In this document: positions 8,084 through 42,649 of the stretch, piece after piece
Position numbering within the stretch: the first letter of the stretch is position 1
How the letters are laid out: each line of letters opens with the position of its first letter
Source of the DNA: Blasia pusilla
Lineage: Eukaryota
Length of the DNA stretch: 64,000 nt
Direction: 5' to 3'
Assembly (NCBI GenBank): GCA_050084515.1
Contig: CM114271.1
Span: 18,414,001 to 18,478,000, forward strand
Position numbers and translations under genes: made by a program
The notes under the pieces: model-generated
Seen by the model: only the letters and a program-made list of their open reading frames with translations
Databases searched by the model: none
What the model was told of the DNA's origin: nothing

Positions 8084-11000
8084 TGTCGTGCGAATACACA
8101 TTGTTGCCAACATACATCGATTGTCATGAACACACATGTCTAAGATCCATGTACCTATGAATCCTAACATCTCTACGTATGAATGATTGGACAATCCCAA
8201 TGTAAAGTTGAATACAAATTGTGAACTATGATGAAATACGTAATGAACCGTGCTTCATCCAAACACCGATATTCACAATCCGGATACACAGTGTTGGAAA
8301 AGTCAGAGATACTGTACACAAGGACTCCCAAAATGTGTGTGATCTTCCTTATTGATCACTCCTAGAGAGAATCCACGCTAAGTACATGCAAGCTCCATTG
8401 TATAACAGATCCCAACATGGGTCTGCAATCCTAAGGAAGATGAGCTCCAAATGAGCTTCATCCGAGGTATATCCCCCCGGGACATCTCCATGAGTGGCTT
8501 GTATACATAAGTCACCTCAAGTCATAGCAGGTCTCTACCAACTTATAGTACATAGAGTACTAACTCCCTAACAACTACACATGTGGTCCCCTCATGTGAC
8601 CAACTACCAACTAACCCATGACCCTATAGGTCCAAGTGGAGCCATACATGGCTGGGAAGGTCAACCTCTCCAAGGTTTCCACTCCTCATAAAGGGAAGGG
8701 TGACCTTCACTTGTAGGTCATCTCCTAAGAGCAAGTCATATATGACCTCTCAAAATGGGGAAGTAAAAGACCCTTCTAAGGCTTGATACTATCTCGCCCT
8801 ACTCCTCATCTACCATGATAGTTGTTGTGCGAATACACATCGCTGGCAACATACATCAGCTATCATGTACACACATGTCTAACATCCATCTACCTATGAA
8901 TCCTAACATCTCTACACATGAACGACTAGACAACCCCAACTGCCCCCCTAGCCGGTGGTTAGGTCCCTCTAACTCTAGATAGCCTACAAAACAAGTTTAA
9001 ATGTTATGCACCTTTTAGGTGCTAAGATCGGGAGGTTGGGTGCTATGTCCCCCCATTGTTAGTCACCTTTCTACAATCCATAACATCAAGAGTCATCTTG
9101 TAATCTACCTACCTATCACACCTATATACATCTGGGACAAAGCCAATGTCCCTGAGGAACCAAGTCAAGAGGCAGCGTCAAACATGACATATGCCATCCT
9201 CGAGAACACCCATCACATACTACCATCGTGGTTGCGCCTCTGGCAGACCCACACAACATGCACCTCAAGCATGTAGGAACAACTTCTAAGCTTGGATCAA
9301 TCCTTCCATGTACGTTTGAAAGATGACATGATACACAACAACGCACATGATCTTTCCAAACAGTATCATCACGACCCTATTAAACAAGGACTCTTGAAGG
9401 TAAAATCTCTTGCACTTGCATAATAGTGTGACCCGCCGTCACGTCCAATATTTTTGGCGATGTCAACTATAGGTAGACATAATTGCCATGATAGAATTTC
9501 CGAATCCCTAGAAGATAGCCTGCTCCACGTGTAGTCGCGTATCTTAGAGTATCGCGATGCTCAACAATAGCCAAGGCATATCTATTCAAAAGAGCTCAAC
9601 CCACTGAGATCAAGCTCGCACCCATACATCTCGATTGTCAAGGTCAAGTACCTCAACCACATCTCATCAAATGGACAATGGTAACTCTGGATCTCTCCCT
9701 TAGAGGAAGAAAAATGGTGAAAATGATGCCAAGGATGCCTGCGGACTGAAGCAGTAACCCATTGCCAAGCACGGCAACTGTAGGTCCCAATCTTCCAAGC
9801 GTCCTCTCTGTAGTCCATACTTGCGCAATCCTCTCTTCACCGTCTACACAACTCTCTGTGCCAAACTATCTACTAGTGGATGATCTCGAGAAGTCGTACG
9901 ATGATCTATCAATGCCTCATCACACAAGGCCTGCAAGTCACCCCTAAACTCAGTACCCTGGTTTGTCAACACATGTGCTGGTGCGCCAGAATGCCTAAGC
10001 ACTCTATCAAGAAATGCAGAAGCCGCTGCCTCGCTTGACCTATTCGGAAACACTACCTACTCAATCCACTTGGAGAAGTGCTCCACCATGACCATCATGT
10101 ACCGACTATGGCGTCACATCAATGATTAAGGCCTTAAAAAGTCTAAACTCCAACGATACCCTAATCCCATGATCGATCAAGGATGCAAATATGGTGTCGG
10201 AGCATTGAACGATGCTTGCACCCTATCACATACAATGCATCTGGCTACAAAGTGGTGAACATTAGTCTGCATACCACGCCACAAAAAGTGAATCTAAATC
10301 AAGCTATACATACGCCTGACTCCAAAATTACCTAACTCCTAGTGAGCATGTCTTACTACGCATGCTCGCTGCAAAGGATGCGGCACCATTCGCACTCATC
10401 CATCCTCCCAAACTTGAAGCACATGCGTCCCCTCCGACATGGACCTCCAATTGGCTCACTATAGGACTCAATCCCGCTCTCTAGCTCCCAACGTGCTTGC
10501 TAAGACACCAATGCGTAGGTATTCCAAGACCATCTCATCGTCGTGGATGTCTCTAGTCCCTCTCGACTCCTCACTAGCATCTAGATGTTAGGAGTCACCA
10601 TCCAGCATCCCTCATGGAGTGGATGCCTCTTGCTGACCTGACATAGCCAACAGACACAAATACGCAGATGCGTGTCAACATGGCACCATCTCCTCATCAT
10701 TCTCACCATGCCACCACGCTCTAGTTGCATGGTTTTGGCTCGTGCATGGGTTAGAGCTAAACCCGTCCGCATCCTGATTAATATATTTAGATGTCATGGG
10801 CGATGGACAACGTCAAAATTGCACTCATAGAAAAAGAGTGACCATCTAGCAAGCTTCCTTGTAAGGTTGTCAGACTCCATCAACCATCTGAGTGGATGAT
10901 GATTGGAGATGAGCGTGAAAGGGTTCCTCAACAAATAACATCTAAAATCAGCCACTGCTTACACAACAATTAAGCACTCCCCCTCAAAGGAATATATTGT

Positions 11001-12689: not shown

Positions 12690-14280
12690 GCAACTGTCGA
12701 CTCTTAAAATGAAAAACTCTGCAGCTCATCAAGGAGGGAAGTCTGGTGGAGCAGGGCAGTGATCCTGCCCGTGGAATCTTTACGCGTATCTAATGATGAA
12801 GGAGTGTATTCCACATCCTTAGTGAATCCTCCGGAAGATCCCGACGCCCCCCGCTTTCGCTTGTCGTGAGTTTGCTATCTGCTTGTTGGTGTGCGAGTTA
12901 CTTCAGACTCCACATGTGGTTTTTTCCTTGGCTCGCTTGTCTGCCCCTCTCATCTAGAATATTCTGCCTCTGAATGCCTCAAACCCTTTGCCTTGGCGGT
13001 CAAGCCCGTTGTCGTGTTGAGATCCTTTCTTCGAGCAAGGGCGGGCCTTCTAGCTGCGGTAGATGTTGTCGATGCAAGGTGAACTCTCTAATAAGTTCTC
13101 CTTTTTCAATACAAAATTATGATGTACACTCTACATTCTCTCACGACAGGTATCACAAATGGAAGTGCCGAGGCGATCACTTCTTCGTAACATCGGACCC
13201 CTAAATTCCTAACTATAAAATCCCTATAAACTATTTTACGCTTGTACACGAGGAAGATAGCACAACTAGTGTTAAACCCTGCTTGAGAAGGCCTATTGAC
13301 ATCCATGGATCGATAAATAAGGACATACAAAGTACAATCCTATGTCCTTCCATATGTGACAATAAGAAGAATCACCGGAGTTGGAGATTGTATGATATGG
13401 CATGAACGCCTCCCCAAAGTGATAAACTAAATAGCGAGTGAACCAGTGCCTATCTACAAAGAGTACCTTGACATGGTAAGGATTGAGGAAAGGAAAGTCG
13501 GGCACAGCTCGTGCTCCACCCCTATCCATGCTTGACACACATTCTCTACTCTCCTCAAGAATGAGTTTTGGCGGAGTTATTCTCCCAAGAGGGGTAATCC
13601 ACTCTCATTGGGGAAGTAACAAGCCAAAACATCCGCTATTTTAGTATGACTAAACTCCTCTACGGTGACAAACCTCTCATCCCCACACACACACACCACA
13701 CTCTAGAAATCTCTCTAAGAATAGACCATGGTCAAGTTACTCTCCCAAGAGGGGTGATCCACTCTCATTGGAAGAGCAAGCAACCCCAAAGACATACACT
13801 CAAGAGAGACACGAGAGACTCAAGATGTGGAATAGAAGGTGATGAACCCTTGAAGGTCCCTCCTCTTTATATACTCACAAGGGATCCACAAGAGTACGAA
13901 ATAGAGCTTATCTTATCTTGTGCCACATGGCTTCCTCTCAAGGCTTAGCCAATCACATTTTGACACAAGTAGATTTCCTCTTATCTCTTCCAAAATATCC
14001 TCTTTTACCCACATGATATTTTCCAAATTACCCCAACTAACCTAGCCACCAACCAAGACTACTTTTGCTTTTCATTAAAGCAACTACTTTACTTTTATAA
14101 AGTCATCTTTTATTTATTACCTTCTTTTCCTAAAGTTGGGCCCGCATAAAAGAGGCACCATAAAAAGGTTTAAACATAAGAATCTCCTTTTTCTAAGCCA
14201 ATTTACTTAATACTAATGAAACTCTATCTAACACTTAATGATGAAGGAGTTTACACACTGGTTGATTTTACTATACGACA
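12690..14280 (-). mobile_element. 5' LTR plus leader of a second Gypsy family (truncated)
   Basis: ~13000-14280 is a direct repeat of ~23080-24368. The putative LTR is 13355-14280 (TGTCGT...GTCACA on -), followed by TA-TGGAAGGAC, which is PBS-like. The left boundary is approximate. Confidence 0.7.
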
Positions 14281-20759: not shown

Positions 20760-23700
20760 TCTTTCTTTTCTTTGCATCCCCATATTCTTGCTCTATAGGA
20801 GTGCAAGCTAAAAATCTGAAAACTCCTTCTCTACCTTCAAAGGACCATCTCTCAACTTCTCCCTCTTCCTTTCATGACCTACTCATACAATAAGGAATTG
20901 AACCGGTCTTGTTCCATCCTTATTTCAAATACAGGCATAATAAGACCCATCATCCATGACTTTGGTCTCCAGTCTAGATGCTGTGATGTAAGGTTGCCCA
21001 AGAATCATAGGATAAGTAGCTCCATTCTGAACAAAGAAATTTTGCTTAATCAACGCATCTCTGATACGAGTTTTGACGTATGGACAAGCACCGTAGAGTT
21101 CACCTTTTTGGTTGTTAGCCGCTCGTAGAACCCATCCATGCCCTGTATCAATTGGCCACATCCCTTTGTCGTATACACTTCGCGACATGATGTTGATCTC
21201 CGAATCATGATCAACGAGAGCCAGATCTGACTCTTGAAGAGAGCCAAGTCAAACTGTAGCCTCCGTCGTTGCACTTGCCCAATATGACCGAGAATAGTGT
21301 CCACCATTGTGCCTTTCTTCACCTTGTTCTGTCAAGGCTTCTCCTACTCTCGCCTCTTCTTCCCTCTTCTTCCCGTAAGTCAAGCTTTAGTCCAAAAACT
21401 TGGCAAAGCTCTTCATCTTCTTCTTCTGTGATGTCCGTATCCAAAGCCCTCACCATCACCATATCTGCAGTCATCTGCCTCTTCCTTTTGATCAAATCTA
21501 TCATCAACTCATGAAAGTCACATTTGGTTATTCCCAAGAATCTCCTTTAAATTCGTTCTTGTCCCTATATTAGACAGCAACTTGTATGTAGGAGTCTTAC
21601 CCTTGGTCTTTTGAGAAGACCTCAATTCTTTCTCCTTCATTCCACCTTCTTTCATTTAAGAATCCATCATAGATTCAGATGTAGAAGTACCTTCTTCTCT
21701 TGATGGTTGCGCCTTTGGTTACCCTTTCCTTCTTGCGGTCCTCGCTCTTCTTGCAGCTTCCTCGGGATCAACACCATCATTGTTGCGCCTCCTCTTCTCC
21801 TCCACACAAGCATCTTGCAAACTCACATGTTTCTCTTGTGCTAGGTATGCTTTAACACACCCAGCTTCCACTGGATCATCCCATCCAGTCACATGATGGA
21901 TAGTCTCTGCCCCTCGTATCATCACTTCTCGAGGAAATTGTAATGATTCACTTTTATATACAGATACAATAGGCGCTTCTATTTTTACTGCAAAGGTATC
22001 AGAATCTAATACCCTAGTGGCAACTCCTACTTGACTTCTCACTAAGCCTTCCATTCCTTCTCAACCAAAGTTGGTATTCAACGGCATGTCAGTCTACGTT
22101 GAATGAATCTTCCCATCTTTGAAGTTTACAATTCCATTATTAAGAGCTTCAGAAAACTCCTCACATTCTCGACGTTTATGCTCAACACTATCTCACAAAG
22201 TTCCTACTTGTCGAAGGAGCACCAACACTAGGATTCCTATCAAGTTTATGCTCACCCATTTCTACTCTCAATTCTCTCAAACCTTTCACCAACTCATCTA
22301 TAGCAGAATCTTCAAGTTTTGTTGAAACGAGCTTAGGCAATGGATTCGAAATTGATACCTCCGACTTGAATAGTGCGGTTCTACCTCTACTTCGGTTTTG
22401 CTTTGTAAGGATAACAACATCTTCTTCCACTTTCTTCCAATAAGTGCTGACCTCTCCTTCTTAGGTCTTGTCCACCAACATTATGAAAAGCTTGTCCTCC
22501 TAATTCTCGTCAGCCGCCTCAAGGAATAACTCAGTTTTCCTCAAGTCTAGAGTTGCTCTTTCGGAAGAAGAAAGTTAAAAAACACCGCTTCTCAAACTTA
22601 CGCAATAATTCATTTGGAGTCATTTCCTTCCCTAGACGTTGCCCTATCTATTCTAAAAAACTCCTCTTAGTCACCCTATCCACATCATCATCGAAAAATT
22701 TTCCTTTCAGCAACTGCTCATACTCCTCCCACAAGGTTGGATTTTCTGCTCTCAACTTCTTTACTTGACTACGAATCTCTGGTATTAGAGCTAACTCAAA
22801 ACTTGACACCATGTCACCTTTGGATACAAGGTTTACCTCCATCTCATAGACGTTCTCTCAAACATATTTGGTGATGTTCCTCCCATAAAATCTCCCCAAC
22901 TTCTTTACAATCGCTTGAAGAGCCCTTGTTGATCTTTGCTCTCCTATGTGAACTCCTCCTCGTTGGGAGAAGATCCTCTGCTCCCTTAGTTCCCATTGAT
23001 GAAGTACTACCAAAAGTAGTCATCTTGATAAGATTCCAACTTGAAAATACAATCTACCGCCTCAAAGATCTCTCAGTGGAAGCACCATTTGTCGTATCGA
23101 GAGCCTTTCTTCGAGTAAGGGAAGGCCTTCTAGCTGCGGAAGACGTGGTCGATGCAAGGTGAACTCTCTAAGAAGTTCTCCTTTCTCAATACAAGATTAT
23201 TATGTATACTCTCCATTCCTCATGATAGGTATCACAGATGGAAGTGCCGAGACGATCACTTCTTCGTAACATCGGACCCCGATATTCTTAACTATAAAAT
23301 CCTTATAAACTACTTTACGCTTGTACACGAGGAAGATAGCGCAATTAATGTTGAACCCTACTTGAGCAGGCCTATTGACGTCCATGAATCGCTATATAAG
23401 GACAAACAAAGTACAATTCCATGTCCTTCCATATGTGACGATAGGAAGAATCACCGGTATTGGAGATTTTATGATCTGGTTCATGAACGCCTCCCCAAAA
23501 TGATAAATTAAATAACGAGTGAACCAGTGCCTATCTAGAAAGAGTATCTTGATATGGTGTGGATTGAGGAGAGAAAAGTCATGCACTACTTGTGCTCCAC
23601 CCCTATCCATGTTTGACAGATAATTTCTATTCTCCTCAAGAATGGGCTTTGGCGGAGTTATTATCCCAAGAGGGGTAATCCACTCTCATAAGCAAAGTAA

Positions 23701-24368
23701 CAAGCCAAAACATTCACTATTTTAGTATGACTAAACTCCTATAAGATTATAAACCTCTCATCTCCATACACACACACACCACACTCTAGAAACCTCTCGG
23801 AGAATAGACCATGCTCAAGTTACTCTCCCAAGAAGGTGATCCACTCTCATTGGAAGAAAAAACCATCCTAAAGCCATACACTCAAGAGTGACATGAGAGA
23901 CTCAAGATGTGCAATAGAAGGTGATGAACCCTTGAAGGTCCCTCCTCTTTACATACTCACAAGTAATCCACAAGAGTACAAAATAGAGCTAATCTTATCT
24001 TGTGCCACATGGCTTCCTCTCAAGGCTTATCCAATCACATTTTGACACGAGTAGATTTCCTCTTATCTCTTCCAAAATATCCTCTTTTATCCATTTGATA
24101 TTTTCCAAATTACCCCAACTAACCTAGCCACCAACCAAGCCTACTTTTTCTTTTCATTAAATCACCATCCTCACTACTTCACTTTATAAAGTTATCTTTT
24201 ATTTATTACCTCTTTTCTTAAAGTTGGGCCCGCATAAAAGAGGCACCATAAAGAGATTTAAACATGAGAATTTCCTTTTCCTGAGTTAATTTATTTAATA
24301 CTAATAAAACTCTATCTAACACTTAACGAGGAAGGATTTTACACACTGGCTGATTTTACTATATGACA
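20760..24368 (-). mobile_element. Truncated Gypsy element (5' LTR, gag, aspartic protease) inserted in the MULE-like element
   Basis: LTR at 23434-24368 and gag-like ORFs at 22648-22842, 22188-22430 and 21719-22054. Protease LVDHDSEIN...MILGQPYI at ~20925-21220. Confidence 0.75.
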
Positions 24369-26990: not shown

Positions 26991-27320
26991 ATAAGGGTAT
27001 GGCCATACTTGCGACACTCCGTGACCTCTCGGGTAACTGAGAATCCGTGGACATCACCTCTAGAGTAACTACCAATGGCTAATGAGGTGGTTCCTCATGT
27101 GGAAACCCTCGATATGTGGTATCACTCCGTGTAAGTCCTCCACCACTTCTACCACTACCACGCTCCCCAGAACTCTGCCTGGTATTTCTAGATTCCCACT
27201 TGTATTTGTGACATGGATGACAAGAAGGTGACTAAGGATGGGGCTACATGAGCACCTGGCCTTTTTGCTCTTAGCGTGCGAGAGATGTAAGTCATGGTAG
27301 CTAGGGATAGATGAACACTA

Positions 27321-27936
27321 GCTAGGGGGATGATTGGAGATATTTTGGTACTTCTCATCTCGTTGTGTGGATTCCATGAGTAAACATGGGATCGTGCGTG
27401 TTTGTGTGTATGTTTGGTGACAACAATATATGTTGTGTAATGATGTGTATGCACAAGACGATTGTCACGTTTATTAGGATAGATCAATGAGATCTAGTAG
27501 AGCGCCTTTGGACATAGTGTAGGAAAACCTAATGAGATCAAGGGTGACGTGCTGAGACCACCAGTAACCTGAGAGAGCAGGATTCCCCTTCGTTTCGGCT
27601 CATTTGGAGCCATATAGAGAAACTTACTATTTTGGGTAAGTTTCCATTTATACTGTAGTTGAATTTACACTTTGGGAATTTGCCCTTGATCTGCTACAAT
27701 AGGTCAAGTGACAAGGAGGTGACCTGCAAGCATAGGTTACCGTGGAGAGGGCTTGGGAGAGGGAAGGGGGTATACCTCCAAGAAAGAGAGTTTGAGAGCT
27801 CATTCTCTCTTGGAGATATTTTGGTACTTCTCATCTCGTTGTGTGGATTTCATGAGTTAGCATGGGATCGTGTATGTTTGTGTGTATGTTCGACGACAAT
27901 GATCTATGTTGTGTAGTAATGTGTATGCGGACGACA
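27321..27936 (+). mobile_element. Terminal purine tract-A-B-A structure of a related element
   Basis: gctaggggga is followed by A (27335-27460), the spacer AT, B starting TGTCACG at 27463, and a second A (~27811-27936) ending GACGACA. Confidence 0.75.
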
Positions 27937-30469: not shown

Positions 30470-30690
<221 letters not shown>

Positions 30691-30769
30691 CAAGAGAGAG
30701 AAAGAGAGCAAGGAGGACCATAGTTCCGCCGCCTCATGCGAAGAGGTTCAACAAAGAAAGAATAAGCTT

Positions 30770-31116
30770 TCAAGCTCTTTCTCTTCGATGTATACCCCCT
30801 TCCTTCTCCCAAGCCCTCTCCACAATAACCTATACTTGCAGGTCATCTCCTTGGCCCTTGACCTACTACAGCAGGTCAAGGGTCATATTTGACTTTCCAC
30901 TTCCCAAAGTGGAAAGTCAACTATACCAAAAATGGTATCTTACTCTAAATAGTAAGTTCCTCAATATGGCTCCAAATGAGCCGAAACGAAGGGGAAACCT
31001 ACTCTCTTAGGTTACTCGTGGCCTCAACAAGTCATCCTAGACCTCCTGAGTCTGTCCTTTGGTATCTTCAAAGGCACTCTACTAGATCTTGTCGATCTAT
31101 CCTAACAGACGTGACA
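30770..31116 (-). repeat. Block B copy of the 27.5 kb subfamily
   Basis: Reverse complement of 27463-27800; starts TGTCACGTCTGTTAGGATAGATC at 31116. Confidence 0.8.
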
Positions 31117-31473
31117 ACTCCCACATGGTCAAGATACACTAGCTTGGAGTTCTTGCAAACGCCACAACACCACAATTATGCTCCACACAAGAAATTGAGT
31201 CCCATTTTCTCTTCTATTGAGAACGAGTGTGCATCTTCTTGAGGATATAAAGTTGAATCCAAATTGTAAACTCTAAGGAAATGTGCAATCAACCGTGCTT
31301 CTTCCAAACAACCATATTCATAAATCGGATATACACTATTGCAACAGTAAGAGAAAGTGTACACAAGGACTCCCAAAATGTGTGTGATCTTACACTCCTA
31401 GCCCACTCTTCAAGAGAGAATCCAGGCTTAATACATGCAAGCTGCATTGTAAGACAGATTCCAACACAGTCTG

Positions 31474-32492
31474 GTATAGTAAAATCATCCACTCTGTAAA
31501 CTCCTCTCCCATTAAGTGTTAAAGAGAGTTTTACTAGTATTAAATAAATTAGCTTAGGAAAATAAATTTTACATGTTTAAACCTCTTCAGGGTGGCTCAT
31601 TTGTGCGAGCCCAACTTTAGAAAAAGAGGTAATAAATAAGACATGGGAGTATAAAAGTAAGTAGTAGGGTAGGTGTATTAATGAAAGAAAAGCAAAACTA
31701 GTCTTGGTTGGTGGCAAGGGTAGTCAGGGTAGTTTAGAAGATATGAAATAAGTTGATGAGGATATTTTGAAAGAGATAACGTATAATCTACTTGTGTCAA
31801 AATGGGATTGGCTAAGCCTTGAGAGGAAGACATGTGGCACAAGATAAGATTAGCCTTATTTTGTATTCTTGGCGATCCCTTGAGAATATATAAAGAGATG
31901 ATTTTTTTAAATGTTCATCATCTTCCACTTCATTTCTTTAGTCTCCCTTATTGCTCTTGAGTGGATGAAGCCCATCTTGGATATATGGAAATTGGCTTGT
32001 TTGGTCTTCCAACGAGTGTGGATTATCCATCTTGGATGGATGGAAATTAGCTTGTTTGGTCTCCCAATGAGTGTGGATTACCCATCTTGGGAGAATCACT
32101 TGGTTGAGTTCTATTCTTCGAGAGTTTCAAGAGTCTGATATGAAATGGTTATTAAGGGAGAGAAGTAGTCTTAGGGGAGTTTTATCATGGTAGGGATAGT
32201 AGATGGTTCTGGCTTGTTCTTTTTCCAATGAGAGTGGATCATCCTTCTTGGGATAGCAACTCCGCCAAAACTCATTCTTTAGGAGAGTAGAGGATGTCCG
32301 TTAAGTATGGATAGATGTGGAGCACGAGTCGTACATGATTTTCCTTTCCTTAATCCATATCACGTTTTCGTATAGTAAAATCACCCACTTTGCAAACTCC
32401 TCTCTCATTAAGTGTTAGTGAGAGTTTTATTAGTATTAAATAAATTGACTTAGAAAAATAATTTTTTCATGTTTAAACCTCTTTATGGTGCA
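31474..32492 (+). mobile_element. Decayed LTR of the second Gypsy family, with its start repeated in tandem
   Basis: Reverse complement of ~13460-14280. The gtatagtaaaatca...ctcctctc..attaagtgtt start occurs at 31474 and again at ~32370. Confidence 0.7.
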
Positions 32493-35400
32493 AAAGAGTG
32501 GGTTATCACACGCCGCTTCTACCGTTGTTGAGAAGGTCAAGAAGAAGGTAATATACCACATCCTAAAGTATGCTTTAATATGAACACTTTCACATACTTT
32601 TTCTCTCTCTCACTAAAACTCGTTTGGTGTAGATAAAGATAAGATTTATCATACTCATGCAAGCATTAGTGAGAAAGGCAAGTGACAGTTATAAATTCCC
32701 AAGGTGAATCTCTCTACCAATTCTTGTTTTCATTTTATGATATATTTATTTCATTTTTTCTTGCTGAAATATGGATACAAAAATTATGTAAACCTCGCTA
32801 AAAAGAAGTGGAGATTGTGAGAATAAGTTGCATAATTTATTATTGTACATCCTATTTGTTGTATAGGTGAAGCAATAATAGACATACATGTTCCACCAGA
32901 ACTGAAGAAGAAGGTTAAGATAGCCAACGAATTGGTTGGGAGTGTGGGTAGTATGTCAAAGTGTGATCTAAAAGTGCTGAACACCAAGAAGCAAAGGGTA
33001 AATATTAAAGCTTTGCTCCATTTGCAAGTAGAGTTTATGTGTTCTTTGTGGACATGTGACAACACTATGCATGCATGTGTGTTTCCTTTTTCATTTTCAT
33101 GTACCCAACTAGGTGAGGCTTGGGGGTTTGGGGTTTAGGACCATAAGCCTCACCCAACCAGGTGAGGCTTGTGGGCTTTTCAAGGAAGTTATCTATAGAT
33201 GGATGGAGCTTCACCAAGATAATGAATGTGGTTATAATAGTTAATCAACTATTGGAATGTTTTTATGGTGGCATTTAATCAATTATTTTGGATTGGCATG
33301 TGTAGTGATATTTGGGAGATGTGTATCCATGGGAAGGATATTGGTCTTGGATTGGTCAAGGTGGACCTAAAGGATACAATGTATTCTGACTACAACTATG
33401 GGAGCCGAACACAATGGATGAACATGCTCAACTCACACTAGGAGATGCGATAAGGACTTCTATCATTTGGCTAGAGTTAAATGAAAAAAAGCTTGCTTAT
33501 TAGATATTCTGATTTTGATAACTTTTCAGAGCTTTGGAGATGGCACAATGACTTCTTCAAGCCATTCTTTTATCTTATTTCCACAGTTTTCATTCAATCT
33601 CTATTTTGCTAATTTCCATATTGAGAAGATTGTGACTCTTATCTATAAGGACTCCTTAGGTTGGGATTTTATTGTACACAACGGAGCTATGAATCTACAT
33701 ATATGTCATCTTCACGATTGTGATTGTGTCACATCTGAGTAGCCGATAAGCCGAGATCTATCGTGGATAGGCGTAGGATCCAGCGGACTATCTTGAGTGT
33801 AACTTTGTCCCACAGTGTCGGATGAGGTTGAGGATAGATCCATTGTGTCAGGAACGTTGTTTCTGACAACTTTCATGTTGAGGTCTTTCACAGCCGGATG
33901 ACTTGTTGACCAGGTCACCCGCCCCTGGTAACCTGTGCGCGCAAATTACCAAGGGGAGGGCTATTTTTAGGGGAAGAGCCTTTTGGCTCTTCCCAACCCT
34001 ATATAAGAGAGGAAGATGGCTTTCTTAAGCCATCTTTCTCATGTTAGGCCCTTGGAGCACCTCCCTTGTATGTGTGTGAGATAGGACTAGGGTGCTAGCG
34101 TCCGGATTCCTTGACAGCACAGGGTGGACGAGGCTCGATATGCCGATGTAGATTGAGGAGTGGAGTTTTAGGCCAGGTGTGCTGTTCTTACTACTCTTTA
34201 TTTTTACATGAGAAAGATGGCAGGGGGCTAGTGGGAATTCGTTGTTTGCAGGAAGGCAAGCGAGTTGCCTTCGTCGAGAGCCCCTCGAGACGCGTGTGTT
34301 GCGGGTGTTTGTCATTTTTCTGTTTGGAAGGCCGTGGGCGGAAGCGCTGTCCTTTTTTCTTATATTTTTGTGGTGCAGATTGATGGGGACAAGAAAGAGG
34401 TGTAAGAGTTGCAGTTGCGGACGGGCAGTATAACATTGTCTACTAGCCGGAATGTCGGGATTTTGTAGGAAGGAGAGTTAGGGCTTGCAACCGCCGAGGG
34501 GCTCTGAAGTAAAGGGCGGCTAGGTCGTGAAGGCTAGGGTTAGGGCGACGAGCGTGTACGGGCGGCAGACGGGTGGTGACGAGCGGCAACGAGCGCTCAC
34601 GAGCGCGGGCAGGCGGCGACAGGCGCTGACGGGCGGCGACAGGCACGGACGGCGCGCGCGCCCCCTGCAGGTAGGCCACGGTGGTCGTGGGCCACCTCTC
34701 CTCCCGTTTAGGGCCAAGGTCCCAAGGTGCGGGCCAAGGTTCCCCCCATTTAGGTAACGTGGTGGCAGGGAGGATGTCGATGTGGTGAGTGACCGATATA
34801 GTTGGACAACGGACGTGGATGATGTTGAGCTACGTGGTTGAAAGTTCGGATGTGGTCGGGCAAGGCCGGATGTGGTCAGGGTCATGTTCACGTGGTCGGA
34901 CAGGGCGTACGTGGTAGGAGTGGAGCCCGACCAGGGTGTGTCAGGTTACATGCCGCGTGTGGGGATGGACGGAGAGGTTTGCATGGCATGATGTTTTTGG
35001 GGCGCGACACGGCATTGCGAGAGTTTACGATGGAGGGGCAGTGCGCATGATGCCGACGGGTTGTCTGCATCTGTTGACGGGAGGATCGACGTGTTGGTAA
35101 GAGGAGAGTGTTGTGTTGCGGAGGTTGTCATATCATATGGAGGAGTGCATGTTGACGGTGCAGCAGGTTGGAGGGCGTGATCACGTTACCCTTTTGAGTC
35201 CCTTTTCCCGCACTTGTCATGTGTGATTGAGAGTGTTGGGTATCGGGTAGTAGCTGGTGCTAGGTGGGTGCAGTGATGGTGACGAGTGTAGATTCTGTTC
35301 ATGTGTAGCATGTTGGTGGATATACGGCGGTTGTCGAGTAGGGGTCGCATGTATGACCCGAGAGAGTGTTGCTAGGTTAGATGAGTCAGTTGGGAGGCTC

Positions 35401-35739
35401 ACGGTGAGCCCGAGTGTTGAGTATGCGTGAGGCCGGGTGTGTCATCACGGGATTGAAGTTAGCATAGGTGAGCTAGTGAGGAGTGTGGAAGACTCTCGAT
35501 GAGTCTGAGTGCTTGAGCAGGTGAGACAGGGTTGTCATCACGGCATTCTTCCAGGGATCAGAAGAACGGGGTAGTGCGAGCAGTAGTAATGGTGTGACAC
35601 GGAGTGGAGTGAGATACCGAGGGGTTACCAGTGAGGAGCTACCTCGACATCCATCCGTGGCAGGATCGTCATCACTAGACATTGGGTCGGGTGACGAGAT
35701 CGCAGACAGAGACAGTAGTACTTGGCAGGAGATGGACAA

Positions 35740-37320
35740 CATGGGCCATCGGGGCATGCGTCGTTTCTTGGGTGCAGTGGGCACCATAGACTAAGATGAT
35801 TTTATCTAGGAGTTCGACACGTGGTGCGACTTCCAGGAGATACCGACCCCGACGCGGTTCAACCCTTTCATGTCATGGAAGGGGTTGTTCCAGCACTTGG
35901 AGGATCCTCCGATGGATGACTACATGGAGTTTCGATCACTATATTCAGTAGAGATTGATGCCTGGAGGATGTATTGGGCTCCAGTGTATGTGTCCACTAG
36001 TGGTCGCGAGGCATATGATGGGATTGTGAGAGGAGGGAGACCCACACCATGAGCCCGAAGACTAGATGGAGAGGAGGGCAGTGACACAGGCGATGTGGCA
36101 GAGACCTCTAGTGGTAGAGGGCAACCCAGCTTCAGCCCCACAGTGGAGTTCTTCCGACAGTTGGGGAAGAGCTACCAGGGCGTACGCACCGACAAGCTGA
36201 AGAGTCTGCAGGATTTTCAGCGACGATCGGGTGAGAGTCTGAGACAGGAATTCACATGCATGAGGAGGCTGATTATTGCTACGTTTGGAGTGACTGAGAC
36301 GCAGTCACTGTAGTATTGGTAGGGGGTTCTGGATCAAGAACTACGGAGGAGAGTCCAAGATGAGGTGCTGATTCACACAACGAAGCCCACATTGAAGGTG
36401 GTCTTTGAGTTTTCTGAGCGTATTGAGCTCAACATGAGTGAGGAGCAAGTAGTGACCGCTGGATTTCTCGAGAGTCGACGGGTCCACGAGCGACGGTCAC
36501 CCCACAGGTGCCACAGCAATCACTAGTACCACGGGAGCGGGCCAGTGTGCCCACAGAGCAGGGCGGGTATCGTGAGCCTATGAGGCAACAACCCGTACCT
36601 ATATATGTTGCCCAGCAGGGAACGATGTGGTCTTGTTGGACGTGTGGAGGGGCCCCTAGGCATAGAGACTGCCCACAGCATGGGAGAGGACCACTAGTGC
36701 CTTTGATTGCTCAGGAGCCATAGAGGATGGCCCCACCACAGATATGGTCATACTAGGGATAGATGTTTTGACCTTCGCCGAGGGGCACGTCCAGAGGTAG
36801 GCCGAGAGCATGGGGGCGGTCGTCCTGCAGGAGGTCGGGGAGTTCTTCCTGGACGTGGTGGTAGAGGACCACCACCAGCCATAGGAGATGGAGTAGGAGC
36901 ACCAGAGCCGGCACTTCTCTGCCTAGAGAGCAGGGCGGGTACCGTGAGCCTATGAGGCAACGACCCGCACCTACATATGTTGCCCAATAGGGACCGACGT
37001 GGTCTTGTTGGACGTTTGGAGGGGCCCATAGGCAGAGAGACTGCCCATAGCATGGGAGAGGACCACCAACGCCTCTGATTGCTCAGGAGCCACAAAGGAT
37101 GGCCCCACCACAGCACCAGTGTGACCATTGCCACAGATATGGTCACACTAGGGATAGATGTTTTGACCTTCGCCGAGGGGCACGTCGTCGGAGGTAGGCC
37201 GAGGCCTGGGCGTCGTCTGCGGGCAGAGGTCGGGAGTTCTTCCTGGACGTGGTGGTAGAGGACCACCACTAGCCAGAGGAGATGGAGGAGGAGCACCAGA
37301 GCCGGCACTTCTCTCACGCA
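35740..37320 (+). pseudogene. gag with zinc knuckles
   Basis: LKSLQDFQRRSGESLRQEF is a retrotransposon gag motif. Knuckle-like motifs CWTCGG...HRDCP and CDHCHRYGHTRDRC are present. There are many stops. Confidence 0.8.
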
Positions 37321-37718
37321 TCGATCAGTTGGAGTAGAGGATTGTTGCCATGACGATGATGCAGCTTAGGGAAGGCACGCAGCTGCGAGCAGCTAGTGTG
37401 ACTCCAGCTTCTACCTCTTACCCTGACCCGGGTGAGGATCTTGCTAGTATGGGATTTATGTGTAGTGCAGCCCAGGTTGAGGCAGTTGCAGTGGTGACTC
37501 AGGGTGTTGCAAGAGGCACCGAGCCATCGAGAGGTGGAGTTGAGATTGACCCACCAGAGGGGACCGATGGGCAGCAGGCCAGGGTTCCATAGCCATTCAC
37601 ATTGTCAGAGGCACTACACACACCATCGATGGTGCCTCGACGACCAGCAGTGCCTACAGCTCAGGCACCTATGTCGACGTCACGAGGAGTTGGAGTGACA
37701 ACTCCTATGCCGGCTTGA

Positions 37719-38440
37719 GTGGAGTTAGTGTCAACCATAGTGTTGGAGGTGGCCACCAGAGTGAGTCAGACTCCACTATTTTCCGCCATAGAGTTGGCGA
37801 CGTTGGGAGTTGGACCAGCTGAGGTGTTCTGGTTGGCCGCCACGTTGGGTGAGCATGGAGAGATGACTGCTTCTTGTTCAGAGGAAGTTGAGGAGGTGGT
37901 GGACTTGCCCTCAAAGCCCGTGCTCGGGATGTTCCCCACCGAGTTATGGCATGCGGCGGCGACGAAGTTGGTAGATAGGCCAGCTCGAACGGCCATAGAG
38001 CGAGCAGTGGTGATACTTGGAGTAGTGTTATTGGATAACCGAGCTGGAGTATTTTTCTTGGTTAGTCCGACAGGGACAGTATACCACCCGCAGCGCGTCC
38101 TATTTGCCTCGGGAGCGCAACCCTTGATGTTAGGGAAGGCGGCGTGTTTAGCGTCGGGGTTACGGAAGGCCGACATTAAGCCTTGTCCCTTCCAGATACG
38201 GACCTCGATTGGGGGCGTGTCACCCACGTTGTATATGACTCGACAAGAGATAGTTGTCAGAGTCCAGCCAGAGCATGAGACGGATAGTGCTATGGTGCGC
38301 ACATGTGCGATTACGACACTTGTTGAGTCGTACCATGTGTTGGTGGGGAGTACAGTGTTATATCCCCTAGGATTCATCCTTGACTTCTAGGAGGAGACCG
38401 TTGCTTATCGGCCAGAATGGCAGTCAGGTGACGGCCCGAT
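37719..38440 (+). pseudogene. Retropepsin-type aspartic protease (catalytic Asp lost)
   Basis: RVLFASGAQPLMLG corresponds to the usual LLDSGA motif; VLVGSTVL is the second motif. Confidence 0.7.
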
Positions 38441-38820
38441 GAGTTAGCTACCCGTGCAATTTGCACGACAAGGTGGTCGATCACGAGGCGAGTCTGTGAC
38501 CACGTTGGCGGCTTTCACAGGTAGTGTTAGTTGGCCAGGAGAGTTGTTGGAGGGGAACGCACATGCGGAGATTGTCCCAGTAGCGGATAGTCCCACGGAG
38601 AGACAGGCCATGGCGGGTGTCTCTTCCCATGTTGGCAAGACCTCTTCACCATTGTGGGGTACGACTCGAGAGCTACAGAGGAGTGTCGACGACCTCGTGA
38701 GGCAGGCATGGAGTCATGCTTTGATCTTGAAGCAGCGAGAGTCACGTGGCAATCGGGCTCTTGGCGTGGAGACATTGACTGGATACCACACCCATTGTGT
38801 GGCAGTGCCCAGAGGAGGGT

Positions 38821-39700
38821 GTTAGGGTGTTAGATCTCTTTGGAGGGATTAGCACCGGATTGGCGGGCATACGGGTGCATCAGTACCTTTATGTGGAGAG
38901 AGATGAGACCGCGCTGCGAGTATCATTACGTCACTTGGCGAGATTGGTCCAGAGGTATCTTGAGTTGTTGCCGGTATCTGCAGTACGGGGATATCAGCAT
39001 ACACTACCCGCCAACATCTCTTTGGTGGGGGCGCAGGATCTTGATAGAGTTGGCACCATTCATTTGGTGATTGCTAGATGGCCATGTTAGGGTCATTCAT
39101 CAAGCTGGTCGAGGATTTTGATTGCGGGATCCGAAGTCAAGAATTTTTTGGGAGATGTTGCGAGTAGTACGACACTTGCAGGAGAGTCAGACATGTTCTC
39201 TAACGTACATCTTGGAGAACGTGCCGTTGTTGGAAGACACTCGTGCACGTGTGATGACAAGTGTGTATCAGGTGAGGTCCTGGTTGGGACCTGCTGTGTT
39301 ATTAGATGCGGTGAGAGTTGGATCACGTGCATACGATGGAGTCCATAGAGCACCACATCTCACAGTGGATGCTATTTTGGACTCAGGGCGTCGATCTCAG
39401 GTGGTGACATGGGATGATAGACCACCGTTGGCCATGGCCAATAAGGTGGGGGAGTTGAGGGCAGCCTTACCTACGTTGGTGAGCTTCCCAGCATCCCATG
39501 CCTTTTGTCACAGAGGGCCAGGCATGATTTGGGATGAGGTGACCGGAGCATTGGAGGAGCCTACAGCAGATGAGCACGAGCGCGCCATGGGGTTCGCTAC
39601 TGGTACTACGGCGGTGCCAGGGATGATTGAGGCATCCCGGAGACAAGTATTGGGGAAGGCGATGGACCTTAACTCTCTCACATGGAAAGTCAACCTACGT
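38821..39700 (+). pseudogene. C5 DNA cytosine methyltransferase domain (DNMT3-like), copy 1
   Basis: Motif I VRVLDLFGGISTGL, motif II YLYVE, motif IV HLVIARWPC*GHS, motif VI YILENVP, motif IX EHERAMGF and motif X RRQVLGKAMD occur in canonical order. Confidence 0.92.
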
Positions 39701-40089
39701 ATGGCTGAGCAGAGACGGATGCGAGTGTCATCCATGCCGTCACGTCCACGAGTTGGACCATTGCCTATAGGGTTTGTACATGCATTGGTTGGGGGCAAGA
39801 CGAGGAGAGATAGGCATCCATGGACTTCCATGGACGTTGTTCGAGCAGAGAGTGCGAAGGCGGCTCGGATAGCACATATTCATTTTTTGGATGCGGAGCA
39901 TGGTGTAGGAGGTCAGAGTGGAGTGGTTGTTGCGGAGGTGGCTAGGGTTGCTACATAGCAACCAAAGCCGGAGGTTGCGTCCTCTCCGAGTGAGGTCACG
40001 ATGGAGACTTGGGAGCCTATGATAGGTCTCAAGTTGATAGGAGGAGAGCGACGGCGAGTTCATAGGTTTTTGATAGGGCATGTCAATTT

Positions 40090-40795
40090 TTTTCCTTCAG
40101 TATGAGAGACTTGGGTACACTAAAGGGTCCCGGGATACGGATTGAGTTGGCTAGTGATACGCCGATCTTTCGTCGACCCTACAGGTATTCTGATATGGAG
40201 CGAGCCTTGATTCAGAGCAGGAGTTAGGACTTGTTGGAGGCAGGACTTGTGGAGTTATGACATGGGGAGTATGCATTTGCCACAGTCATGCCGGCAAAGA
40301 AGGATATGTATGGCAATTGGACGGATAGGCGGATGTGTGGAGATTACCGTCCTATCAACCAACAGACGAGGTCAGATCGATACGCCATGCCTACTCCTGA
40401 GGAGATCTTTGATGGGGTAGGGCATGCAAAGATCTTCAGTACTTTAGATCTCCGTGCTGGCTATCATCAGCTTCCTATCAGGTTGGAGGACAGGGAGAAG
40501 ACAGCATTCTAGGGGATAGATCGGTTCGGGAGAGATTGCTTGTATCAGTGGAGGTTCTTACCATTTGGATTGAAGAACACGCCTGCAGAGTTTCAGAGAG
40601 TGATGGATAGGATTCTGGCTGGCTTGGATTTTGTACGATGTTACATAAATGATATTCTTATCTTCGGTTCCACGGTTGAGGAGCATGAGCGACAGTTGGA
40701 GGAGATGTTTCGGCGATTGCAGTTACATGGACTGAAGTTACATCCAGGCAAGTGCAGATTCTTTCAGGAGCAGATTGAGTACTTGGGACACACCA
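40090..40795 (+). pseudogene. Gypsy reverse transcriptase
   Basis: RMCGDYRPIN, FSTLDLRAGYHQ, LPFGLKNTPAEFQR, YINDILIF (YxDD changed to YIND) and KCRF...YLGH. Confidence 0.95.
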
Positions 40796-40977
40796 TGGTT
40801 GAACGCCTAACCTATACATAGGTTAATACTGGGATAAATTGAGATACACGTGTGTCCCGTCTGCTGAACGCCTAACCTATACACAGGTAATGACTCAAGT
40901 GGTGGGGTTGGATGATGAGTCTTTCGATCCGGAGGTTAGTGAGGAGGCGACATGTGGTCGTGATATCCATGACGACA

Positions 40978-42018
40978 TGGGACTTTGCGGGACCTTTGCC
41001 ATTGACGGGGCATCATCATAGGTACGTGTTGGTCATGGTGGAGCATTTCTCCAAGTGGATAGATTTGGTGGCACTACCAGACAAGGCGAGCGAGGGAACA
41101 GCTAATGCATTTCTAGATCATGTGCTTATTCACTTTGGTGCACCGACGGAGGTGTTGACTGACCAGGGTACTGAGTTCAGGGGAGGGTTTCAGGCCTTGT
41201 GTGATCAGGCGCTGATAGATCATCGCACCACGTCCAGAGATCATCCTGAGGCGGATGGGTTGGCACATAGAGTGGTACAGACGGTGAAGAGAGGATTGCG
41301 CAAGTATGGCTTGCAGCGGGGACACTTGAGGGAGTGGGACCTACAGTTGCCATGGTTGGCTATGGGTTATCGCTTAAGGCAGCAGGCATCCTTGGCGTCA
41401 GTTTCACTGTACTTTTTGCTCTTTGGGAGAGAGCCAGATGCACCTGCAGCGATTCGACGTGACATGGCGGAGATGTTAGATCTTGATGATCCAGATGTTT
41501 TGGTACAAGCATGTTCTCAGAGGGCAGAAGTTTTTCATAGAGTTATGCCTATGGCCTTTGAGAACTTAGCTATTGCCCAGCATAGAGATACATTGAAGTA
41601 CACGACCATTCGTGGAGGAGGTTATCGTCCAGGGATTAGGAGGTTTCATCCTGGAGATTACGCGTATTTACAGCAGGCGGCACCCACGACGCTAGATGTC
41701 ACTACAGAGCGCATGATCCTACGTGTGCGCGAGGTATTACCGACCGGAGTCCTCATGTTGGAGGGATGGGATGGGATGGTTTGGAAGGATCATGTGCGCA
41801 ATTGTGCGCCATGTCATCTTCCGAACGTAGATGTGACGGTGGATCCGAGCTTGGCAGTGGTACCTGCAAGCTTGAGGTGTATGTTGTGCGGATCTGCGAG
41901 GGGTGCAGCCACCATGTTGGTATGTGATGGTTGTTCTCGAGGGTGGCATATGTCATGTCTGACCCCCCCTCTTGATGTGGTTCCCACGGGACGATGGATG
42001 TGTCCGAGATGTGTATAG
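40978..42018 (+). pseudogene. Integrase core plus C-terminal PHD finger
   Basis: DFAGPLP, VEHFSKW, LTDQGTEF, HPEADGLAHR (usual E lost) and LLFGREP. A C4HC3 PHD lies at 41878-42015. Confidence 0.93.
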
Positions 42019-42649
42019 GGTAGTAGGTCATGTCAGAGAGATGTGATATTTTCTATCTGGAGTTGGGGGGATCCAACTACCAGCTAGGGGGGCGGTTGTG
42101 TGATCTCCATATATATGTATGAGTTGATTTTTGTACATGTGTGGATCGACCCGTGTGTGGGGAAGATTGGTGTTATGTGGTGTAGATGTGACCAGCAATG
42201 TATGTTGTGTAGCGATATGTATGCGCACGACAATTGTGACTATTGCATCCTGAACGTCTCACTCACTCTCTGTTGTTGGGAGATTTTAGAGTCAACAAAG
42301 ACTAATATAACTAGAATGTAATATGCTGCAATAATAAAACGTCAATATTATGATGAAAAAAATAATAACTTACAATAATTATAGTGTGAGTTCTTTTCAA
42401 TAGAACTAACTTAGTCATTTATATGACTAAGCCAATCCAGAAAATAACCAAATTAGTAATTGCATGTGACTCATCCAATCGTTAATATAACTAGTGCAGT
42501 GACCATTATACCAATACAGTCATTTAAATAACTCATGTCTCTACTCATTTGTAATAACTGAGCTAGTTATTTATGATAATGAGCAATGACACAACCAGTC
42601 GCAACTTGACTCATATAGTCATTTTGAATGACTCTATAAGTTGGATTCA

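Follow-up and report, generated by a model that had tools for sequence, protein, structure and literature searches.

A Ty3/gypsy-type retrotransposon family with split A-B-A termini in Blasia pusilla, probably integrated as circular permutations of its cDNA

In a 64,000-nt stretch of the Blasia pusilla genome (GCA_050084515.1, contig CM114271.1, positions 18,414,001-18,478,000, forward strand; the window in what follows, with coordinates counted from its first base), three copies of a retrotransposon family, here called V, X and Y, end in a purine tract, a block A, two nucleotides, a block B and block A again. We conclude that this A-B-A arrangement is the 3' terminus of a Ty3/gypsy-type retrotransposon whose integrated copies, judging from their sequence, would probably be circular permutations of its cDNA, joined at its ends and then cut by the integrase at a palindrome within the repeat. 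The arrangement is family-wide, and a preliminary description of the window, which had read it as a terminal repeat with an internal att-like junction and a non-standard route of priming or replication, interpreted it rightly.

In copy V (plus strand) the polypurine tract (PPT), GCTAGGGGG, the plus-strand primer site, occupies 27321-27329 and lies 4 nt before the first A block (A1, 27334-27460), which ends in GACG where the family consensus has GACA. The 2-nt spacer AT of a CA-NN-TG joint (27461-27462) is followed by a B block (B2, 27463-27809) that starts with TGTCAC, and this by the second A block (A2, 27810-27936), which ends in GACA and forms the right end of the element. In terms of the putative long terminal repeat (LTR) derived below, A1 would be the 5' part of U3, and B2 the rest of U3 with the promoter together with R-U5. 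The A blocks of this copy, 127 nt long, are 87% identical over 126 ungapped nucleotides (89% over 119 nt by blastn, E 3e-38), and its 347-nt B is 80% identical to a second B at 31117-30754 on the minus strand. Copies X and Y lie on the minus strand. The 3' end of X (8084-8952) consists of a PPT at 8952-8944, A1 at 8939-8823, the spacer AC at 8822-8821, B at 8820-8201 and A2 at 8200-8084, with A1 and A2 85% identical over 117 nt; that of Y (5798-6519) consists of a PPT-like tract at 6519-6511, A1 at 6506-6371, the spacer AG at 6370-6369, B at 6368-5912, with a TATA box at 6109-6099, and A2 at 5911-5798, with A1 and A2 78% identical over 115 nt. The first joints read GACG-AT-TGTCAC in V (27457-27468), GACA-AG-TGTTAC in Y (6374-6363, minus strand) and CAACA-AC-TATCAT in X (8827-8815, minus strand), exactly as first quoted.

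Upstream of their 3' ends, X retains a pol gene with reverse transcriptase (RT), RNase H (RH), integrase (IN) and PHD finger (12283-9128, minus strand, by tblastn) and Y an integrase-PHD region (8051-6587, minus strand), and no pol was detectable upstream of V by tblastn with family proteins. Between the pol stop and the purine tract we recognised a conserved non-coding block, GGTGACTAA.GATGGGGC...GCACC..GCC, in V (27227-27261, delimited by eye), in X (9075-9040, minus strand) and in the related loci L001-L037; situated downstream of integrase-PHD, it is common to at least three subfamilies of related loci. Its presence at 27227-27261 identifies copy V as a true 3' end. Since pol DNA among the V, X and Y family copies is only 68-74% identical, the window copies are independent, diverged members of one family; block coordinates, A1/A2 identities and pol divergence thus confirm that purine tract-A-2 nt-B-A occurs in three independent copies.

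Full-length relatives were examined in 80 metagenome loci that code for integrase-PHD homologues of 48-76% identity, with flanks of up to 10 kb, on which copies of A and B were placed by blastn. A locus was called a short form if a single A was followed by at least 700 nt of room downstream, and insertion sites were counted after merging loci with a common flank. The integrase-PHD gene is directly followed by A-NN-B-A in 31 of the 80 loci and by a single A in 24, the remaining 25 being unclassifiable; these loci represent 21 distinct long and 22 distinct short insertion sites. Upstream of the integrase gene, B stands alone with no adjoining A in all 14 loci in which it was found (about 12 independent cases, as L005/L027 and L069/L070 are likely duplicates), and likewise in window copies Z and V2. 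The long form therefore reads B1, about 8.3 kb of genes, purine tract, A1-NN-B2-A2, and the short form ends in a single A. Two identical terminal LTRs, which together with a tRNA primer site the preliminary description had named as the finding that would contradict it, were seen neither at the 14 5' ends nor in the 55 classifiable 3' ends. In the five full-length long forms, A1 and A2 are 88-94% and B1 and B2 84-92% identical, so that the two pairs are about equally diverged and both must have been identical at insertion.

Target-site duplications (TSDs) were read by eye from the flanks of the 12 elements with both ends, copy Z of the window included. Perfect 4-bp duplications enclose the whole unit in 8 of them: the long forms L005 (AAGG), L023 (CATA) and L048 (ATGT), and the short forms L001 (TACA), L038 (TGTG), L056 (CCAA), L078 (GTAT) and Z (ATTG). 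In L054 and L002 three of four positions match, and L045 and L063 have no duplication. The duplications directly adjoin the TGTCA... with which B1 starts and the ...GACA with which the terminal A ends. Because they surround the entire B...A-B-A or B...A unit, nested solo LTRs and a later tandem duplication are excluded, and the placement fits insertion by a DDE enzyme; a nested solo-LTR origin had been the other finding named in advance as contradictory. We also rejected A-B-A as a chance repeat and an LTR consisting of B+A with an extra A, and a tandem TRIM-like array in which A is a short LTR is refuted by TSD placement and by the occurrence of B after A only at the 3' end.

The same duplications bear on whether elements might integrate as the short form B-genes-A and acquire the extra B-A later, through tandem duplication, unequal crossing-over or a nested B-A solo unit. 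Short forms with perfect TSDs do exist (L001, L038, L056, L078 and Z), as this explanation expects, but in long forms the 4-bp TSDs enclose the whole unit and not B-A. Moreover, A-NN-B-A recurs with exactly 2 nt at 21 sites in three subfamilies, besides the 3 window copies, B1/B2 and A1/A2 are equally diverged, and a short form without a downstream R could not be copied by the layout of primer sites found. Late addition is thus largely refuted, and we regard it as very improbable. As for the short forms themselves, their divergence from the subfamily consensus is similar to that of the long forms (median 5.3-5.4% versus 5.1%, Mann-Whitney p 0.22 and 0.45), and, with no significant difference in age, they may have arisen by recombination or directly. 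DNA contigs from run X1 contain A2-to-A1 'skip' joints whose sides, at 20-30 nt, are too short to separate short forms from mapping ambiguity.

At the joint between A1 and B2, exactly 2 nt separate ...GACA from TGTC..., in 31 of 31 loci as well as in all 4 cases in the window. Of the 21 distinct sites, 9 have GC as the spacer, 7 have AC, 3 have AT, and AA and GT occur at 1 each; with GC, the commonest form, the joint is the 10-nt palindrome GACAGCTGTC, and the non-GC spacers differ from GC by transitions. L044 and L059, which have a common flank, carry AC and GC, respectively, so that spacer changes are ordinary mutations after insertion. The CA-NN-TG joint inside the repeat, first noticed in the window, is kept in every subfamily, and its spacer is always 2 nt long.

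The enzymes encoded by the family are those of Ty3/gypsy elements. The window open reading frame (ORF) at 40894-42018 contains an rve integrase core followed by a PHD finger (Pfam), with RT just upstream at 40261-40821, and a search with the integrase-PHD protein gave 125 relatives at E ≤0.001 among 5427 candidates; a pattern scan of viral contigs gave 53 matches and no relatives. Among the 120 relatives listed, the domains found are RVT_1, RT_RNaseH, Integrase_H2C2, rve and PHD, and the named matches come from green algae (Tetrabaena, Chlamydomonas eustigma), Klebsormidium, Closterium and bryophytes. Pfam assigns the order RT-RNaseH-IN-PHD, as part of an overall order protease (PR), DNA methyltransferase (DNMT), RT, RNaseH, IN, PHD, to four long relatives (P0011, P0017, P0037, P0077), so that the Ty3/gypsy order RT-RNase H-DDE (rve) integrase is present. 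The DNMT region lies between protease and RT. PF00145 (C5 cytosine methylase) was found in 12 of the 120 listed relatives; among the long sequences it is above the cut-off in P0011 and P0077, and below it in L023 (6275-7678; 18.1 versus 22 bits). Copies X and Z align with the same family proteins, including the DNMT-bearing part, to which, in P0011, the stretches 39101-39712 (plus strand) and 12283-11237 (minus strand) align with 34% and 26% identity; Pfam gave no match on window ORF 39122-39958, and the DNMT is seen in the window only as homology.

This enzymology argues against a DIRS/PAT/Ngaro-type element that is moved by an unseen tyrosine recombinase and carries the DDE integrase as a passenger. 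In favour of such an element, the split direct repeats stand in the order A1-internal-B1-A2-B2, which is the DIRS-type order by the definition given in the relevant part of PMC8969392 and in the Fig. 1e legend of PMC5890265. However, no PF00589 (tyrosine recombinase) was found in window ORFs, locus ORFs or the 120 listed relatives, the decayed first 2.5 kb of the internal region being partly scanned; the termini are conserved TG...CA; and TSDs are a regular 4 bp, while DIRS elements are described without TSDs in the same part of PMC8969392. We consider this explanation hardly credible, and the family is a DDE-integrase family, as originally proposed.

How cDNA might be primed can be read from the 5' ends, and most fully from copy Z (33727-42233, plus strand), a short form with B at its 5' and a single A at its 3' end. 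Its left TSD (ATTG, 33723-33726) is followed by B1 (33727-34205), which starts with TGTCAC and is not flanked by A. A TATA box is present in the B of Z (CTATATAAGAG, 33999-34009), of Y and also of relatives, and the sequence adjoining B1 is the perfect complement of B about 25-33 nt downstream of this box. In Z this putative primer-binding site (PBS) at 34206-34221 is a perfect 16-nt complement of 34029-34044, the predicted RNA 5' end and self-primer; none of 2000 shuffles reached 16 nt, the longest complement being 11 nt. Complements of 10-17 nt to the predicted transcript 5' end occur in 7 of 12 5' ends (6 of 11 when L005 and L027 are counted as a single element), measuring 17 nt in L005/L027, 15 nt in L054 and L045, 13 nt in L056 and 10 nt in L048, besides the 16 nt in Z. 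No TGG-initiated site of the tRNA type adjoins B1 in any 5' end inspected by eye. At the other end, a G-rich purine tract adjoins A1 or lies a few nucleotides before it in 31 of 31 long forms. The family thus has the Ty3/gypsy features of a PPT before the 3' repeat, a PBS (of putative self-priming type) after the 5' repeat and short TSDs. As far as sequence can tell, the complement at the primer site is the signature of Tf1-type self-priming, and it is in this form, with the complement of the primer site in B, that the proposal of non-standard priming would hold.

From the PBS complement and the purine tract it follows that the predicted bounds of the cDNA LTR are the start of A and the end of B, so that the LTR should be A-NN-B. 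Within this predicted LTR, the final 120-175 nt of B should form R-U5, and A together with the preceding part of B should form U3. Compared with the predicted cDNA, the genomic copies are circular permutations, in which the left A is gone and an A is added after the right LTR. Just past the TATA box, B also contains an inverted repeat (Z 34010-34044; V about 27610-27650; B of L005 155-180), whose first arm resembles the primer site and whose second arm is the predicted self-primer, and which may be a regulatory hairpin.

The second joint, j, between B2 and A2, differs in character from the first. In the second subfamily, the number of nucleotides in j that match the beginning of the primer site, a sequence otherwise found only after B1, is 0 at 1 site, 2 at 3 sites, 3 at 5 sites and 5 at 2 sites, and the start of A varies there by +1 (an extra G), -1 or -5 nt in some copies; of the X-like copies, one has a 19-nt insert at j and another one extra nucleotide. 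Composed of the putative U5 end, a few primer-site nucleotides and the U3 start, j looks like an LTR-LTR circle junction.

We therefore propose a cycle that would begin with an RNA initiated in B1 and polyadenylated in B2. Its 5' end would prime the minus strand, as in Tf1, and the plus strand would begin at the PPT, giving a cDNA with ordinary LTRs, A-NN-B, at both ends. The U5 end (the B end plus a few primer-site nucleotides) would then be joined to the U3 start (the start of A) to form j, by ligation to a two-LTR circle or by end-to-end template switching. The integrase would ignore the cDNA termini and make a 2-nt staggered cut at the palindromic CA-NN-TG inside the LTR, exposing the conserved TGTCA.. 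and ..CGACA ends, which would be inserted with a 4-bp duplication. Opening of the two-LTR joined form would yield the long form, which would be replication-competent as the sole form to keep the 3' R; the short form, arising from a one-LTR circle, from a cut in both LTRs of linear cDNA or from later recombination between A1 and A2, would lack this R and be a dead end. The circular or end-joined intermediate is thus something that we infer from sequence.

Several observations weigh against this proposal. A symmetric two-LTR circle should also give B-j-A-NN-B-genes-A, and this product was found neither among the 11 metagenome elements with both ends, of which 5 are long and 6 short, nor at any of the 14 5' ends; the opening would thus have to be directional, which a simple circle model does not explain. 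The circle, the cDNA end, the transcription start and the poly(A) site are all predictions. No perfect complement of at least 8 nt was found in 5 of the 12 5' ends (L023, L001, L038, L063, L078), nor one of at least 11 nt in window copies V2 and X2, X2 showing an imperfect likeness; all seven are decayed copies. In copy V, B stops only about 38 nt past a TATA-like motif, which would leave a very short R-U5 unless transcription starts elsewhere, and the length of the primer-site nucleotides in j partly tracks sublineages, so that part of the variation at j may be inherited or sequence-determined rather than made in each cycle. Finally, an index search found no RNA run containing the stretch, and the reads of three RNA runs labelled as the same species, mapped on 5600-9100 at 88% likeness, yielded neither transcript starts nor transcript ends. 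The 324-535 reads per run for the most part match short conserved segments alone. They lead from the purine tract into A starts of X and V type, with one orientation prevailing, and 95-97% of them continue into unlike sequence and so come from other copies; they show that relatives are transcribed, and nothing more.

The missing alternative product is explained more naturally by a template switch, in which RT, on reaching the end of the minus strand (the U5 end with a few primer nucleotides), would jump to the opposite end of this cDNA molecule and copy A a second time, giving a linear cDNA with an extended right end and no covalent circle. The integrase would then process the outermost CA-NN-TG sites, namely the left-LTR palindrome and one in the extension. 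This route would produce the same joint j, with primer-site and PPT-side nucleotides, and would yield B-genes-A-B-A alone and never B-A-B-genes-A; the short form, which roughly equals the long form in number (22 versus 21 sites) and is no older, would result if a plain linear cDNA were cut at its two internal sites. The template switch needs, however, an integrase cut more than 100 bp from a DNA end, an activity not known from Gypsy integrases. Sequence alone does not separate the two models, and on balance we judge the template switch rather unlikely and the opening of end-joined cDNA probable.

A broader suggestion, which we advance tentatively and hold to be possible, is that this Gypsy lineage never integrates natural cDNA ends, its integrase recognising only the palindromic att site in the LTR and acting on end-joined circular cDNA, and that the same logic, in which a joined molecule with two LTRs is opened internally, may have left its mark in the split repeats of DIRS, PAT and Ngaro elements. 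If this is true, the lineage would bridge LTR retrotransposons and circle-integrating retroelements as a living intermediate.

The remaining parts of copy Z, and the 5' ends V2 and X2, complete the family in the window. In Z, pol remnants at 39101-42015 comprise the DNMT-bearing region (39101-39712), RT (40087-40800) and integrase with PHD (40981-42015), with RNase H and the integrase N-terminus deleted, and the short-form 3' end consists of a PPT (42083-42092), a single A ending in GACA (42097-42233) and the right TSD ATTG (42234-42237). The GC-rich 5' internal region of Z also contains a tandem duplication of about 372-394 bp, 85-96% identical (36548-37314). V2 (30756-31116, minus strand) is a 5' end in which a V-type B is followed by internal sequence and not by A; the remnant holds a long (GA)n(GT)n microsatellite (30600-30720), followed by a PHD-finger fragment (30361-30157, minus strand), which indicates that V2 is heavily deleted. 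X2 (31245-31466, minus strand), likewise a 5' end, retains the 3' part of an X-type B; the sequence after it is not A but resembles, by eye, an X-like primer site, and X2 is truncated by later insertions.

Three of the related loci depart from the common layout. L003, counted as single-A, has A-NN-B at 3244-3878 and then an inverted partial B exactly at the B end, which looks like a snap-back at the U5 end, possibly from an aberrant cDNA end. L019 (1537-1817) and L046 (3317-3602) represent a variant lineage without purine tract, A1 and the first half of B2, in which the integrase gene runs nearly straight into the last 150 nt of B and then A.

Elsewhere in the window, element W has conventional 1.27-kb LTRs (13010-14280 and 23090-24368, 89% identical), whose termini, TGTCGT...ACGACA, agree with the permuted family's att half-sites, and CCGT lies on both outer flanks. 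No pol was found in its 8.8-kb interior by tblastn with PHD-family proteins, and W may be a non-autonomous element using a related integrase. A W-like fragment at 31466-32491 carries a 130-nt piece at both ends of about 770 nt (86-88% identical), an a-b-a pattern in a second family, without the other 460 nt of the W LTR. A 1511-residue open frame with three Myb DNA-binding repeats (59463-63998, minus strand), which runs off the end of the window, is probably a host gene, and two protein-kinase fragments lie at 46035-47555 (minus strand).

LTR-finding programs assume two identical terminal repeats, and in the genomes of bryophytes and algae they will overlook this lineage or misplace its ends. 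The anatomy of the lineage offers a concrete, testable route to split direct repeats, made up of ordinary reverse transcription, joining of cDNA ends and the opening of an internal palindrome by a DDE integrase, and this route joins retroviral circle-junction cleavage, DIRS-type termini and Tf1-type self-priming. The DNMT and the PHD finger make the lineage relevant to the interplay between transposons and host chromatin.

Among known systems the closest is KnitGypsy-Dnmt3 of Klebsormidium nitens (de Mendoza et al. 2018), for which the Fig. 4c legend describes repeats as in a DIRS element together with Gypsy domains (PMC5890265). The two have in common a Gypsy pol and the DIRS-like repeat order, the C5 cytosine methyltransferase of KnitGypsy-Dnmt3 has a counterpart in relatives P0011 and P0077, and K. 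nitens retrotransposon proteins match the window integrase-PHD ORF (P0086, 44% identity over 92% of the query). They differ in that the window copies have a bryophyte-like host, are decayed, and have no DNMT domain detectable by Pfam, and section 9 and the legends of the 2018 paper contain no junctions, TSDs, primer sites or mechanism. That figure legend was all that we found in the literature on Gypsy elements combining split repeats, TSDs and a mechanism, and the consulted passages of a survey of plant LTR retrotransposon lineages contain no PHD lineage. The window family is thus a land-plant-type example of a little-known layout first noted in 2018, to which we add the 4-bp TSDs, a proposed att site in the internal palindrome, a putative self-priming site and a second joint resembling a circle junction.

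A split direct repeat layout is also that of TOC1 of Chlamydomonas. The part of the Chlamydomonas v6 paper that treats such elements classes TOC1 as a non-autonomous DIRS element and mentions a PHD-bearing Gypsy with 'LTR subparts' (PMC9940879). In the relevant passages of two further papers, A1-internal-B1-A2-B2 is the hallmark of DIRS-type tyrosine-recombinase elements, which lack TSDs (PMC8969392, PMC8557442). The terminal repeat topology of PAT-like and Ngaro elements equals B-genes-A-B-A; whereas these elements have a tyrosine recombinase and no TSD, the window family has a DDE integrase, a 4-bp TSD, a PPT and a putative self-priming PBS.

Tf1-like self-priming has been predicted for the plant Tcn1 and TAR lineages, in the passage on these lineages in PMC6317226. 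As in Tf1/sushi and Tcn1, the PBS next to U5 would complement the element's own RNA 5' end, here a predicted start, and not a tRNA; for those elements, however, ordinary LTRs are described, whereas in the window family the integrated copy is permuted.

For the proposed integrase step, the nearest precedent is the cleavage of palindromic LTR-LTR junctions by the integrases of foamy virus and HIV-1, as given in the pertinent parts of PMC1180852, PMC1905944 and PMC4372172. In both cases a DDE integrase would cut internally at a palindromic CA...TG and thereby restore integration-competent ends. In retroviruses, however, the palindrome is the U5-U3 joint, has 4 nt between CA and TG and serves a side route, whereas in the window family it would lie inside U3, has 2 nt and is apparently the only att site, the U5-U3 joint being carried passively. 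By analogy only, as these are DNA transposons without reverse transcription, the proposed step also resembles the copy-out-paste-in transposition of bacterial IS3/IS30-type elements, in which a DDE enzyme acts on abutted ends 2-3 bp apart in a circular or joined intermediate.

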